A stretch of 61,368 bases of DNA, filler included, from Kipferlia bialata (taxonomy: Eukaryota), in NCBI GenBank assembly GCA_003568945.1. It is 3 parts of 3 records of this genome, joined end to end, with 100 filler letters (N's around TTAATTAATTAA, not from the genome) between each part and the next. Parts side by side here need not be neighbours in the genome. Positions count along the whole stretch, not along the records: positions 1 to 20,395 come from BDIP01000376.1; positions 20,496 to 40,888 come from BDIP01000377.1; positions 40,989 to 61,368 come from BDIP01000378.1. One strand, given 5' to 3'. The notes beneath the pieces were generated by a model. That model was given only the letters and a program-made list of their open reading frames with translations, was not told the DNA's origin and made no database searches. A program made the position numbers and the translations under genes. This document shows, in pieces, positions 6,980 through 59,894 of the stretch (position 1 is the stretch's first letter; the number at the start of each line of letters is the position of its first letter).

Positions 6980-7568
6980 GGGGGTCACAGGGGTCAGACA
7001 CGTTCTAGGGGGTGAGCCAACACAAGACAACACATAAGATATCCATACACATACTGATTTGTATATACATATACCATATATATGTGGAGAGAGAGACAAG
7101 GGAAGTTGCATACCTCGAACCCCTCCTCCAGCAGCTCTGCCTCCACACTCTTCCTGAGGGCACGGAGGGCAAGGAGGTATCTGGAGTGAATACATATATG
7201 GGTATAAGTACACACATTTACAATACTTGGCAGCACAGCATACTGGAGCTACATACCTGGCCCATGAGTTGACTGCAAAGAACACCACCTCGAGTCTGGG
7301 GGCACGGCCTGAGGTGAGATATAGTATGTAAACAGACATGAGTATACATATATACTATATAATTTTGTATATATGGAACACATCAGTCTGCGTACATGGC
7401 CTGGGAGACGAGTGTGAGTATGTATACACCTTTACATATACATATACACTTAGTAGTGTACCTAGTGACACACTTGAGCTGACTGCTGAGACATACTCCA
7501 GCACCACCCCCTCATCGGTGGCATGGATGTCTGGTATGCAGTCAACTAGAAGACCGGCACCCTTAAGT

Positions 7569-7605
<37 letters not shown>

Positions 7606-8710
7606 ATGTGGCATGGATGTCGGGGATACAGTCAACTAGAAGACCGGCACCCTTATAGTGAGATAGACTATATATAGATATATATGAAGACAGAGGGAGG
7701 GGGGGAGGTTTAGAGAGGGAGGTTTAGAGAGGGGGGAAAACTCACCTTGGTTGGTCCCAGGGCAGAGGAGAGACGACGGCGCTGGAAACCTGTGTAAGTC
7801 AAGATACACCATACACGAACTATCTATTCTCCATTGTTAAGAGATACCTGTTGACTTGACCAGCTGATCTCTCTCTCTCTGTCTCTCGGTACATATATAC
7901 ATATAGCTCTATATACATAGACCTACCTGTTGACTTGACCAGCTGCTCTCTGCTCTGTGGGCCATGCCTCAGGGCACGCAGGAGGCGGACCTAGAGGGTA
8001 ACATAATGTGTATATATACATACTCATATTTATATATATATAGAGAGAGAGGGGGGGGGGGATGAAATGTCTCAGGGCACGGAGGAGGCGGACCTAAGTG
8101 GTTAGGAATACACTCATGTATAGTTAAAGTATACATGTTTATGCACAAAGAGAGAGAGAGAGTTATAGTGTCTCAGGGCACGCAGCAGGCGGACCTAAGG
8201 GGTTAAGTGTACATACAGTATATGTATACATATATATTATACATATTTGTTGTGTTCGTATATATGTATAGAATGAATATATATACACTGTATGTATAGC
8301 GTGTACCTGGATCCTCTCCACGCTGTGTGCGTAACGGGAGCTTCTCTCTTCCTGATGGTGAGAGAGGAAGAGCATACACTTGCAAGGAGTATCTCAAACA
8401 CAAGTACTATGAATAATGTACACTTCTAAGTAAGAGACATGGCAGTCACTACTGTGCTCTTTATAGCCCTAACATATCAATTCATCAGAAGTGAGGATTG
8501 GGTATGCGAGGATAGTGGACTTAAAGTATAGTATACACTATTATGCATATTATATATCGTACACAAGTATAGTCACTATTACCTCAGGAGTGAGGATTGG
8601 GTATGTGAGCACTGTGGATCCATTGGTGTTGAAGGGCAGGAGTCTGTCTGTGTCACCAGGGGTGTCAGAGGCAACCTGGAGTTATAGTATACACATACAT
8701 AGAGAAAAAG

Positions 8711-8748
<38 letters not shown>

Positions 8749-55900: not shown

Positions 55901-57401
55901 GCTATATGGGATGTGATATGTATATATGTGCCCTTCCATAAGTATCTCTTCTTGTGTGTACTCATATTATGTATAGAGTCTTCTTGTTTCTCTCTCTCGG
56001 CATCCGTATATCCATATCCATATATACACACTCACCCCCGGCCATCTGCCCCCCACCCCTGAGCACTCTCTATATCTCTCTCTCTCTCTCTCTCTCCATC
56101 CATATGTCTATACATTGATCTTACCCCAGCCCTCTGCCCCCCCCTGTGTACCCTGTCCCAGAGACAGTGGGCAGAGGTATACGCCCCACACACAGTGTCT
56201 AGCCCTGAGACTGCCAGGACACCCTCTCTCTCTCTCTCCCTAGCCCTACCCTCCCCCGATAGTGCCTCTGGCCTATCAGCCACAGGTGGTGAGGGTGAGG
56301 GGGAGGAGTGTGGTGTCAACAAGTGGCTAGACGACGCAGAGGTCGACATATGCCCATGGTGCAATGCGGTGAGTGTATTTGTAATACCATTAGTACAATA
56401 TACACCTATGCACTAACCGACCCCTTAGGTCTGTGGCATGACCAACAGGAGACATATACACACACACACACACATATGTATACATCATACTGCCAGGTAG
56501 TGTACTATGCACTATCTAACCCCCCAGGTCTTTGGCATGACCAACAGGAGGCACCACTGCAGGGCCTGTGGGGGCATCTTCTGCCAGGCATGCAGTGCAC
56601 ACAGGGTGACAGGTATACACACACACACACATATACACCCATACACACACATATATATATATATAGAGGTGGATAGATATATATAGTATGGTTTAGAGTA
56701 TAATTTGCATCTATGCGTATATATACTCTGCCAGGCATGCAGTGCACACAGGGTGACAGGTGGGTGTATGTATACATATATGTATGTACGCATAGTATGT
56801 GATACTGTATTGGCATAATCGAGTTGTGTGCTCTGTTTGTATTGTTGTACGTATCTCACCCCCCAGGCGAGACCTCTCTGCAGCTGGTGACACCAACAGG
56901 CATCATGGGCGAGAAGGTATATATATACACACATACATATATATAAATATATATATGCATCCACTATACATATATAGTGGATACTATGTAGTAGTTAGTG
57001 ACACCCACAGGCATCATGGGCGAGAAGGTACTGGAGTAATATACACACACTCATGCACTATAAATGTGTATATATTGAGTAATTATATATTATCATATGT
57101 ATTATATCATTGTATATAGTTACATTGTAGTAGTATTGATTCATTCCATGTCTTTTCTATGTTGGAGGCTCACTCCCTATAATTGTACTTGTGTTAATAT
57201 CTCTCTATCCTCTATATCCCCCCAGGAGCGTGTCAAGGGTGGCCACAGGATATATCCATATATATATGTACCTATATTCAGTGCCTGTATATATACCATT
57301 TTATGTATATATACACATGTATATTCACCCCCCAGGAGCGTGTCAAGGGTGGCCACAGAGTGTGTGACAGATGCTACAAGGAGCACAAGAGACACCAGTA
57401 G
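41202..57401 (+). CDS. Large multi-exon protein: P-loop NTPase (STAND-like), long helical region and C-terminal FYVE zinc finger; 5' end missing
   Basis: Walker A RVLVTGGRGSGKTT (~42885-42926), Walker B-like CTLVVEDV (~43955-43978) and a TPGALALA helix motif (~44555). The FYVE finger is KWLDD..CPWC|..RRHHCRACGGIFCQACS|...HRVCDRCY with all 8 Cys (56324-57377). Stop at 57399-57401. Frame continuity was not verified at all junctions (one is unresolved near 45343-45820). Confidence 0.7.
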
Positions 57402-57967
57402 AGAGGGAGAGAGACAGAGAGAGAGAGGGATGGTACCGAGTAGGTGGTGGCCGTGAAAGAGGTGATATCTGTACAGGTCACTGAGAATCAAGAATTGACA
57501 AGAATTTAGCGTTAGAAGAATAGACATAGAGTTGAACAGAGTAGATCTAAGTGCACTTGTATTGCATACCAGCCTAATTGGCCCCTTCTTCAGTGTCTCT
57601 GGTCTATCCATTGTGGTAACAGGCTATATTTGCTTCTTCAGTCTTGCTACCACAACTGTGTTGTCCAGAAGTTCAACTCTCTCTCTCTCTCTGTACTCGA
57701 AAGAGGATATCTGACTTCCACTGCCTCCCTTCTTATCTCTTCTCAAGCAATGTAGAGATGGTGACACTTCCTTTACACCCCCAATACATCATGACTCTAT
57801 GTCTATGTCTATGTCTATGTCTATGTCTATGTCTTGGATGTGTCCACAATGCCTACAGGTCCCTGATGTAGGCCTCCCTGGTCTAGAGGCAGTCTCATTT
57901 ATATATAGATATAGAAATTATTAGAAGCATAATAGACAGTAACACATGCAGTGTCTATCTATTGTCC

Positions 57968-59894
57968 CTACAGGTCTCTGATGTATGCCTCCCTGGTCTC
58001 AGAGTCAATCTCACCAGCCAACAGCCACCTGAGGTGTCAGTACTTACAAGTGGTAGAAAAGATACATTGAGAGGGAGAGAGTCAGAGCGTGAGTATATAT
58101 GCATTACTCTTTCTCACCCCTCGTGTGACACCGCACACCATCCAAAGGCTCCGACATATAGTCATATATATATATGTCATATATAAATATATATAATATA
58201 TATATAAATATATATAATATATATATAAATATATATACATGGGGTAGGACAGATAAGAGAGGGAGGGTGGGGGAGAGAGAGAGTATACAAAATATTCCTC
58301 ACCCCTCGTGTGACACTGCACACCACCCAAAGGCCGATGCAGAGAAACAGGCATCGGATATCAGGATGCCACAGCCGTGTCTGCTGGGGGTAAGGGAGTA
58401 GAGACACATATACATACACATATAGGAAACAAACATATATATATATGGTGACTGGTATATGCATATCCTATGGATGGATACTATGATGCCACAGCCGTGT
58501 CTGCTGGGGTGTGTGGAGTGATAGAGACACGTATATCAGTAACAATGGTGGATAGAAATGAATACAACATTATGCTACTCCCACCTCTCCCCCCTGCCCA
58601 TAGATGACACTTATACATTCATATACTTATATATATATATATATATACATATATGTATGAATAGAATAATATTATATATATCGTAACGTGTCCATACCTC
58701 TCCCCCCTGCCCCTAGTTGTGAGTACCACACCCAGTCTGGTGTCCACATGCAGGGAGCAGCCTGGGGGGTTAGAGAGATGACACTTACATATACTGTGTA
58801 TCACACATATACATACCTGTCCTAGTCAGTGGTGACACCACGTGCAGTCTAGACAGGGGTGGGGGGTGGGGCATATCAGCCTCACTCTCACCCTCACTCT
58901 CACTGTCTACCTTCTGCCTCTCTGGTAGCTCAATAGGCAGTGGGAGGGAGAGAGAGAACACATCCCCAGAGGGTGAGGCAGATAGGTACAGACCCCGGAT
59001 AGGGTGGAGGGAGAGAGTGTACTCCTGCGAGTAGTCTCTCTCTCTCCCCCCCTCCTCCTTCTTAGAGTATCTACCAAGGGGGGCAAGGGAGAGAGGCAGA
59101 GAGGTGCTGGGGGTGAGGGTGTACACGTTTGCAGTCCCCTCTCCCTCTGGCTGAGCGAGAGAGAGAGAGTAGGACAGGATGCGGTGGGTACAGAGGATGA
59201 GGACGTGGCCTAGTAGCCTGGCCTCTCCCTCTCCCTCTCTCTCTCCCCCTGTCTCCCCTCCCATTCCCTCCTCCTCAGGGACTAGCAGTATCTGTCTGGG
59301 GAGATCGCCAACAGTCACTGGGGTGAGAGAGGGAAAAGCACTTTTCATTATCCTCACAAGTTTATACACATGCATACAAATGATTCTACCTGGTATGGCT
59401 GCAACCTCCTTCTCTCCCTCCTCCTTCTTCTCCTCAGCCTTCTCTCCCTCTCCCTCTCCCTCTCCCTCTCCCTCAGTCTCCTTCTCCCCCTCAGTCTCTC
59501 TCTCCACATCTCTCAGACCGACAGGGACAGTAGCAAGAATGGACAGACCAACCTAGGGTGAGAGTATGAAGTATACACCCACATATATATTGAATAGTAT
59601 ATATGCTAGGCTACTATATTCTATATATACTGATAGGGACAGTGGCAAGGGTGGACAGGCCGACCTGTTTTTGGGGTACACCTAGTAGACATTCACTAGT
59701 GTATATGTGTAGGCATTAGGTATATATAAGTATATACAGGTATATATATAGATATGTACCCTGTGTCCAGGATAGGCAACACCTAGGGTGAGACAGAAGA
59801 TTATAGATATACAATAACACATGTATGTGTGAATGATACGTAAATTATACCCCACTTCCAAGGTGACTCTCTGCCTGTATGTCTGTCCCCACAA

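Follow-up and report, generated by a model that had tools for sequence, protein, structure and literature searches.

Why should partial copies of exons, lodged in the neighbouring introns, differ from the exons themselves mainly at synonymous sites? The question is raised by the window analysed here, a stretch of 61,368 nucleotides from Kipferlia bialata. We call such a copy a shadow, meaning an intronic partial exon copy of 15–59 nt of exon sequence together with the adjoining splice signal. For six gene models (165 exons, 159 introns), a codon-blind alignment of each exon with its flanking introns yielded 195 matches at a score of at least 11. Those scoring at least 13 with a low-complexity share below 50% were retained as 166 exon/shadow pairs; a score of at least 13 was reached by 1 of 330 non-adjacent exon/intron controls. 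Within the six models of this one window, 96 of the 159 introns (60%) hold at least one shadow, and the feature reaches beyond the span 7462..58014 proposed in the first-pass annotation (Table 1). One model, that of the gene at 20804..39548, is anchored by RNA and the other five are predictions; the name given to the anchored gene is our assumption from its motifs, as is the FYVE-like zinc finger that we presume at the end of the predicted gene at 41202..57401. A gene predictor run without constraints took shadows in as micro-exons, and the RNA lengths ruled that model out.

Table 1. Shadow-bearing span, gene models and selected shadows, in window coordinates.
Feature	Position	Strand	Basis
Whole shadow-bearing span, 166 shadows	6100..61249		Codon-blind search
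Predicted gene A, 20 exons, 16 shadow pairs	5965..11132	-	Predicted model
Acceptor-side shadow of exon start 7561-7518; 3 differences, all third-position	7608..7651	-	Alignment
Predicted gene B, 10 exons, 5 shadow pairs	12572..14852	+	Predicted model
Predicted gene C, 16 exons, 7 shadow pairs	16420..19465	+	Predicted model
Glycogen-debranching-enzyme-like gene (presumed), 64 exons, 68 shadow pairs	20804..39548	+	RNA-anchored
Donor-side shadow of exon end 21786-21824; 2 third-position differences	21910..21948	+	Alignment
Two acceptor-side shadows (26121-26155, 26208-26237) of exon start 26295	26121..26237	+	Alignment
Donor-side shadow of exon end 26877-26915	26980..27018	+	Alignment
Donor-side shadow of exon end 27265-27297; 3 third-position differences	27357..27389	+	Alignment
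Acceptor-side shadow of exon start 30901; exon letters in mRNA contig	30686..30736	+	Alignment, mRNA contig
Two donor-side shadows (36787-36824, 36880-36912) of exon end 36686-36723	36787..36912	+	Alignment, mRNA contig
Exon end 38292-38336 and array of five donor-side shadows	38292..38888	+	Alignment
Predicted gene, 47 exons, 60 shadow pairs	41202..57401	+	Predicted model
Exon end 46615-46667 and array of four donor-side shadows	46615..47043	+	Alignment
Diverged acceptor-side shadow of exon start 55572; Leu codon with two synonymous changes	55506..55538	+	Alignment
Predicted gene E, 8 exons, 10 shadow pairs	57968..61136	-	Predicted model

The arrangement of the shadows is regular. In 163 of the 166 matches an exon start is copied upstream or an exon end downstream; 65 are anchored at the acceptor and 78 at the donor, the median period is 103 nt, and the spacer to the nearest shadow measures 43–97 nt in 111 of 126 cases. 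Each shadow covers about 40% of its exon and has one splice site only, and the median intron length is 95 nt without a shadow and 262 nt with one. Duplication of a whole exon with later loss was ruled out by the strict one-ended polarity, which fits tandem duplication. A 15-nt unit at 32028-32042 comes near to being an exception to this polarity, and the segment 53332-53418, in a predicted model, is a candidate new intron formed by tandem duplication. Microhomology at the junctions was judged by eye.

The exon part of the pairs is about 91% alike. Over 4738 sites we counted 414 mismatches, of which 96, 68 and 250 fall at codon positions 1, 2 and 3 (60% at position 3), and which divide into 231 synonymous and 183 non-synonymous changes. 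Divergence amounts to 5.2% at 0-fold sites (159/3057) and 20.3% at 4-fold sites (174/859), a ratio of 0.257 (bootstrap 0.21–0.32; p=1e-9 against 0.5). The first-pass annotation had described this bias from ten codon examples, all of which were recovered with an offset of at most 5 nt and translate identically in both copies in the exon frame; the codon-blind tally makes the bias stronger than it had been noted. Its remark that replacements are often conservative is also borne out, single-base replacements being milder than random (BLOSUM +0.30 vs -0.37, n=104, p=6e-5). The ratio is 0.20 in the RNA-anchored gene alone and 0.29 across the five unanchored models, 0.24 on the acceptor side and 0.27 on the donor side, 0.245 with a single pair per exon side, and 0.277 using all 195 matches. 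CpG decay and base composition were ruled out as causes, the ratio being 0.28 with CpG sites removed and 0.245 after base standardisation.

The simplest mechanism would be ordinary duplication within one chromosome, the shadows keeping older exon versions while selection acts on the exon only. Young units with a similar flank do exist, and exon codons are somewhat more often preferred than shadow codons (0.68 vs 0.61). However, this one-copy-constrained null, simulated with the same scoring, gives a ratio of 0.50–0.63 (lowest value 0.43 in 180 replicates) and a third-position share of 42–46%, against the observed 0.257 and 60%. In 27 trios of one exon and two shadows, differences private to a shadow are silent-biased too (28/470 at 0-fold vs 27/137 at 4-fold sites; ratio 0.30, p=1e-5 against 1, p=0.04 against 0.5), and on the shorter shadow branch alone 6 of 12 differences are at 0-fold sites, where 77% are expected (p=0.034). 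Splice signals, moreover, survive despite near-saturated flank divergence. We reject same-chromosome duplication as most improbable, unless intronic copies mutate at less than half the exon silent-site rate. Third-position divergence is near-uniform over pairs, with a dispersion of 1.09 compared to simulated values of 1.03 for a constant allele distance and 1.3–1.5 (+/-0.12–0.2) for same-chromosome copies of mixed age, which weakly favours the constant allele distance. Columns with three different letters occur at 4/141 4-fold and 0/491 0-fold sites, with 3.8 expected under independent divergence of the copies.

The comparison with the one-copy null supports the claim of the first-pass annotation that protein-level selection marked the shadows themselves. 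This selection seems to date from before the copies came to lie in introns and not from later, because the shadows contain 7 stop codons and 5 of the pairs carry indels. The 0-fold divergence for shadows of rank 1, 2 and 3 is 0.037, 0.058 and 0.052, farther shadows seeming only slightly more decayed, which speaks against the allelic origin favoured below.

Shadows lie on the same DNA molecule as their exon, and in the one gene examined at the RNA level they are left out of the main mRNA. Read-derived contigs were compared over 20801-40800. The shadow-free model of the gene at 20804..39548 fits 16 of 16 anchor offsets of the spliced contig (run X2), and the anchored lengths show introns removed whole. 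The main mRNA contig carries no shadow letter and has the exon letter at 35 of 35 listed differing positions (9 from one doubtful pair), with the limit that contigs drop rare variants and do not display minor isoforms. At 36787..36912, where each shadow has 3 third-position differences and one 4-fold site shows three different letters, the contig likewise has the letters of the exon. DNA contigs of 0.8–4.5 kb at single-copy depth (400–499) cover exon and shadow together with the spacer between them, 0 other letters being listed, and 35 of the 67 pairs in the interval fall within one listed DNA contig.

These contigs bear on two further explanations. Tandem joining of two haplotypes by the assembler, a danger that the first-pass annotation had raised, would suit the allele-like differences, and the DNA run may be the assembly's own source; yet single-copy contigs span the pairs, and the sole discrepancy concerns a variant unit that the window lacks rather than one it has in excess, namely an extra copy, near 26892-27001, in the repeat of exon end 26877-26915 found in a contig of single-copy depth. 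We regard an assembly artefact as scarcely credible. The shadows could also serve as coding sequence in a minor transcript, in another life stage, or through programmed DNA or RNA rearrangement dropping one repeat copy. Direct protein-level selection would then produce the bias, shadow splice sites score near the real ones (median 6.6 vs 8.6 for acceptors, 5.4 vs 6.9 for donors), and minor forms could escape the contigs. Against such hidden use stand the 16 matching anchors and 35 exon letters of the mRNA contig, the missing second splice site, and the frameshift or stop that, in 115 of 126 cases, would result from simply splicing at the shadow site. Together they make it very unlikely.

In the DNA run no more than 8 other letters are listed over 20 kb, and none of them falls in an exon. 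The strain thus looks haploid or homozygous, and any exchanges between haplotypes would have to be historical, a point against the allelic origin discussed below. A metagenome scan with one exon of predicted gene B returned a single match, a bacterial contig unrelated to the locus.

The intron side of the shadows is largely intact. AG is present in 56 of 65 shadow acceptors, a branch-point-like motif in 52 of 65 (background 15%), and GT or GC in 61 of 75 shadow donors; neutral decay at a mere t=0.4 is computed to leave AG at 48%, the motif at 40% and GT at 49%. The motif is identical between shadow and real site in only 13 of 49 cases. Between shadow and real site the flanks share 47% identity at acceptors (39% with unrelated acceptors) and 51% at donors (37% with unrelated ones), values that were measured ungapped and that slippage in C and TA runs also lowers. 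With signals that are intact yet mostly unlike those of the real site, each copy resembles a junction that was still functioning as it diverged. The shadows at 26121-26155 and 26208-26237 are each preceded by their own AG and their own, differing branch-point-like motif, and the shadow at 21910..21948 has a GT donor where the modelled real site has GC.

Among 18 pairs with an identical exon part, 13 show no more similarity in the intron flank than unrelated introns do (z<2). Such pairs accord with the allelic origin proposed below; they would also be explained if the shadows were old tandem duplicates whose exon part is refreshed repeatedly by ectopic gene conversion from the exon alleles of other haplotypes, while the flanks escape and drift. 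Repeated refreshing would also account for the gap between flank and 4-fold divergence, and would give a silent bias because the donors are alleles. An old unconverted flank should, however, lose its branch point and AG/GT, whereas the shadows keep altered forms of them, and we consider this history unlikely.

The first-pass annotation had offered two origins, unequal exchange between diverged alleles and a reservoir of exon-end cassettes. The reservoir would require that array contraction or conversion often moves shadows into the functional position, keeping them coding- and splice-competent. This would account for the silent bias and the kept splice signals, and has a parallel in the amphioxus mirages, described in passages of PMC3087553 as length-unstable, even somatically. 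The gradient it predicts toward the splice site is gone once anchoring bias is corrected (p=0.5–0.9; 0-fold 51/954 vs 47/853, p=0.92), the apparent fall of 0-fold divergence being an anchoring artefact. The stop codons (7), replacements (183) and indel cases (5) also speak against it; swapping frequent enough for selection would be expected to erase the 20% silent divergence, and conversion within one chromosome should give a ratio of 0.5–1, not 0.26. With no shadow letter in the main mRNA contig, the reservoir is unsupported and in our judgement improbable. We are similarly doubtful of the wider idea that the intron is a stack of spare exon ends and splice sites which came from other haplotypes and are still swapped into use, by contraction or directed rearrangement, at a rate that lets selection keep them usable, as genome-wide junction-rebuilding cassettes.

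The other origin, from diverged alleles via unequal exchange, appears to fit best. Every unit combines an exon end with a splice signal, the tandem polarity is strict, the differences are mostly silent, and the signals are intact but altered. We think it probable that shadows are tandem duplications across a splice junction, produced by recombination or repair between haplotypes about 15–20% apart at silent sites, and decaying thereafter; the allelic source is inferred from this one genome rather than from a second haplotype or a related strain. The likely trigger would be repair of DNA, or recombination, that brought together two strongly diverged haplotypes of one gene. Because exons would be the sole well-matching islands between such haplotypes, strand invasion or unequal exchange would begin inside an exon, copying would run some 45–95 nt into the donor's intron, and rejoining to the recipient end would then occur without homology. 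The resulting duplication of about 100 nt would span one splice junction and leave two junction versions side by side, one used and one stranded in the intron. Exon and shadow would differ at birth by the allele distance (about 15–20% at 4-fold sites, with few amino-acid changes); neutral decay of the stranded copy would follow, with a fitted mean age of about 0.03–0.06 substitutions per site. Selection would filter the products: duplications within the exon or reaching the next splice site would break the gene, very short ones would compete in splicing, and a narrow period would remain.

A simulation of allele origin with parameters hand-picked from a grid of 24 (silent divergence 0.15–0.2, omega 0.1, age 0.03–0.06) reproduces d0, d4 and the third-position share. 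Some arrays would also grow through ordinary copying of an existing unit: one unit of the 38292..38888 array is 93% alike over 80 nt including intron flank (38299/38476) and, judged by its sequence, is a young expansion, so that same-chromosome copying also happens. Counting against allele origin, flanks are near saturation though 4-fold sites differ by only 20%; a single allele distance does not explain both, unless intron turnover is faster or conversion is limited to exons.

If the allelic reading holds, the introns of one apparently haploid genome preserve a readable sample of further alleles of its species, with other functional branch points and donors for a given exon among them. The silent divergence of about 15–20% among recombining haplotypes would be evidence that this lineage, sampled once, underwent sex or hybridisation in the past, and the duplications would provide a mechanism for intron lengthening and turnover, in line with the difference in median intron length. 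In 60% of introns, splicing passes over strong decoy sites that lie some 100 nt off, and gene predictors will mistake shadows for micro-exons.

Exon-like copies that lie side by side and differ mostly at silent sites are familiar from mutually exclusive tandem exons. There each copy carries an acceptor as well as a donor, whereas shadows have one splice site, a fraction of the exon and strict polarity; the main mRNA contig, blind to rare isoforms, contains exon letters only. One-sided invasion, or aborted synthesis-dependent strand annealing between homologues, combines homology-started copying with non-homologous joining and gives a duplication with donor-derived sequence. The proposed origin of shadows may resemble it, as a donor-derived duplication left by non-homologous joining. 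One-sided invasion is described as single experimental events, and we know of no genome-wide intron-building process of this kind; a full-text search for it matched no paper on every term.

In the Rogers model, to which PMC3265369, PMC4974935 and PMC2891723 relate, introns are gained by tandem genomic duplication. Shadows share with it the tandem duplication of sequence bearing splice signals, which could create new introns (the candidate at 53332-53418). In that model, duplicated exon sequence yields a new intron between two used halves, whereas a shadow is an unused copy inside an existing intron; splicing from the donor of the first copy to the acceptor of the second was not seen in the anchored gene, where the lengths correspond to whole introns removed.

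The closest counterpart lies in the amphioxus mirages, which passages of PMC3087553 and PMC3902484 describe as tandem units across the 5' or 3' exon boundary, many with AG/GT and with normal splicing undisturbed, 10–160 bp long, 81–100% alike, in concerted evolution and reported at single loci. Those passages do not mention codon-position bias, and the keyword passages of PMC5874029 and PMC6679479 do not mention duplication; a full-text literature search, whose coverage excludes most subscription papers, returned no description of silent-site bias in such copies. Like mirages, shadow units span either type of boundary, measure about 100 nt and come several per array, many but not all keep AG/GT, and normal splicing is undisturbed (one gene, one contig). 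Unlike mirages, they pair an alike exon part with a flank of 47–51% identity, few units being alike throughout, and they occupy 96 of 159 introns rather than single loci, with a fourfold bias toward silent sites in the exon part; this density, the bias and the independently evolved splice signals are not described in the mirage passages. The mechanism generating mirages is called unclear in PMC3087553, and the allelic origin proposed here, if true, supplies a testable one.

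When every exon was aligned with the introns on either side of it, 195 matches reached a score of at least 11. We retained 166 pairs of an exon and a shadow (a short intronic copy of the neighbouring exon's end plus the adjoining splice signal), with scores of at least 13, reached by 1 of 330 non-adjacent controls, and a low-complexity share below 50%. The silent-site bias of the copies is confirmed: all ten codon examples quoted in the first-pass annotation are in the sequence and synonymous, and the 414 mismatches of the 166 pairs are distributed 96/68/250 over codon positions 1/2/3. 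Divergence is 5.2% at 0-fold (replacement) sites (159/3057) and 20.3% at 4-fold (silent) sites (174/859), a ratio of 0.257 (bootstrap 0.21–0.32); the ratio is 0.277 with all 195 matches, 0.28 with CpG sites removed, 0.20 in the RNA-anchored gene and 0.29 in the other genes. Simulations with identical scoring in which only the exon is constrained give 0.50–0.63, with a minimum of 0.43 in 180 replicates, so that the observed third-position excess exceeds this null. The null is equivalent to shadows being older exon versions, a reading that its rejection makes highly unlikely.

The analysis rests on six gene models with 165 exons and 159 introns. For the 64-exon gene, 8 listed pieces of one 5210-nt contig from run X2 provide 16 anchor points, all fitted by a hand-curated, shadow-free model with one constant offset. 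Because this contig skips introns exactly, it is spliced, the RNA status of X2 being otherwise a guess; the RNA anchoring extends to this gene alone, the other five being predicted models. By their motifs, the anchored gene is putatively debranching-enzyme-like and another predicted gene putatively FYVE-like. The window is eukaryotic; its introns are short, GT-AG and rich in TA and CT repeats, with a branch-point-like motif near the AG, a style reminiscent of the fornicate Kipferlia. A codon-blind self-comparison shows most of them to contain short direct repeats spaced by about 100 nt. The median intron measures 95 nt without a shadow and 262 nt with one. Nearly all matches (163/166) are exon starts placed upstream or exon ends placed downstream and no match (0/166) is tied to the other splice site, a one-ended polarity that has the layout of a tandem duplication spanning a single junction. 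The copy takes in about 40% of the exon, the repeat period is 91–114 nt (interquartile) and spacers are 43–97 nt in 111/126.

Individual features of the stretch, with a reading where one is offered
Position	Observation	Reading
1840–2900 (minus strand)	intron-free, fewer repeats; resembles one long reading frame in a single exon; genes nearby differ	
20440–20451; 40933–40944	identical 12-nt AT-only linker between N runs	scaffolding mark, not biology
20804–39548	64-exon gene anchored by RNA	
21825	modelled GC donor, outside RNA anchors; shadow downstream has canonical GT donor	
~26892–27001	one X1 contig, depth 479.7 (single-copy; total 979), 5 substitutions and 1 inserted base relative to the exon-end/spacer/shadow unit	probably one more unit of the repeat, lost from the window by collapse
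29745–29850	intron must end AT, not AG, for frame and RNA length to fit	
32028–32042	donor-side shadow preceded by its own branch-point-like motif and AG; potential in-frame 15-nt micro-exon	ruled out in main mRNA by length
38536–38652	one single-copy-depth DNA contig joins across 115 nt within the array of five shadows, with 22 nt on its short side	may reflect an additional unit, a contracted array or mis-mapping
39515–39668	last exon's end with stop codon and GA-rich 3' flank, three tandem copies	duplication not confined to splice junctions
53332–53418	identical 26-nt duplication inside apparent exon; TA-rich filler of ~30 nt that begins with GT	perhaps an emerging intron of ~45 nt alongside a 4-codon duplication, or a captured allele having an intron there
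53717–53752; 53843–53878	mutually alike intronic repeats; match only about four codons of modelled exon	putative remnant of another version of the exon, or missed exon

Splice signals are retained in the shadows: acceptors keep AG in 56/65 and a branch-point-like motif in 52/65 (background 15%), and donors keep GT or GC in 61/75. On average the flanks do show homology (p=2e-6 and 5e-5), with 47% identity to the own real flank and 39% to unrelated acceptors at −18 to −3, and 51% and 37% for donors. Neutral decay at t=0.4 (identity that low takes roughly twice this divergence) would retain AG in 48%, the motif in 40% and GT in 49%. Where the exon part is identical (18 pairs), the flank matches no better than unrelated introns do in 13. 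The appearance is of an exon part and a splice signal that each evolved in use, apart from today's junction. Slippage in C and TA runs depresses ungapped identity, which tempers this reading; yet excess identity is almost absent also in the bases adjoining AG (−3 to −6). That exon alleles converted old duplicates, which we consider unlikely, would account for the flank gap but leaves unexplained the branch points that are kept yet different, identical in only 13/49 cases where shadow and real site both have one.

The DNA contigs of run X1 over 20801–40800 (0.8–4.5 kb, depth 400–499) span pairs at single-copy depth without other letters, at least 35/67 pairs lying wholly within one of the contigs listed; X1 is possibly the source of the assembly, and this tests the assembly step rather than the sample. 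Haplotypes stitched in tandem by the assembler, an artefact raised in the first-pass annotation, were not borne out, and we regard an assembly artefact as almost certainly not the cause. Eight other letters occur among the X1 contigs listed for this interval, five of them in the variant contig over ~26892–27001, and the strain looks haploid or homozygous. In RNA, the exon letter was found at all 35 shadow-differing positions with a listed piece, 9 of them from one doubtful pair; shadow letters are thus absent from the main contig of this one gene, a result concerning the main form only, as contigs drop rare variants. Hidden coding use of shadows is compatible with contigs that lose minor isoforms, and we judge it quite improbable; the nearest shadow's splice site, if used, would cause a frameshift or stop in 115/126.

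Among 27 trios of an exon and two shadows, the changes confined to a single shadow favour silent sites (28/470 0-fold vs 27/137 4-fold, ratio 0.30; p=1e-5 against neutral and 0.04 against 0.5), and the shorter shadow branch shows a weak silent bias (p=0.034). Three-letter columns occur at 4/141 4-fold and 0/491 0-fold sites, where 3.8 are expected if copies diverged independently, which suggests that the copies came from many sources and not from two parents. From pair to pair, third-position divergence varies little (dispersion 1.09; weak support). The shadows do undergo decay, with 183 replacements, 7 stop codons and 5 indel cases. The proposal that shadows form a reservoir swapping into the working exon position predicted a gradient toward the splice site, seen at first and gone after the anchoring correction; within-chromosome conversion would moreover give ratios of 0.5–1, and a swapping rate high enough for selection to act would wipe out the 20% silent divergence. 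We consider a reservoir doubtful, and the first-pass interpretation as a whole is supported in part.

On balance we favour, with moderate confidence, the reading that shadows are junction copies captured by exchange or repair between diverged haplotypes. Exchange or break repair would begin in the exon, the only well-matching island, with copying running on into the donor's intron before rejoining without homology (junction microhomology was judged by inspection). Two junction versions would then stand in tandem, one working, joined to the rest of the exon, and the other stranded; selection would purge duplications that lie within an exon or extend as far as the next splice site. A simulation fitted over a grid of 24, with silent allele distance 0.15–0.2, omega 0.1 and post-capture age 0.03–0.06, reproduces the numbers. 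Against haplotype capture, divergence in the flanks far exceeds that at 4-fold sites, the run search and metagenome scan turned up no second haplotype, the trend for farther shadows to be more decayed is weak, and some young units are alike throughout, indicating that same-chromosome copying occurs too. The only metagenome match, L001:5001-5099, is a GC-rich bacterial contig and spurious for the shadow question.

In the full-text literature searched, largely open-access papers, we found no description of a silent-site bias in such copies. As far as the accessible text on amphioxus mirages (tandem units across exon-intron boundaries) describes them, shadows share their layout. They lack the similarity along the whole unit that marks mirages, and go beyond them in density and in silent-site bias.
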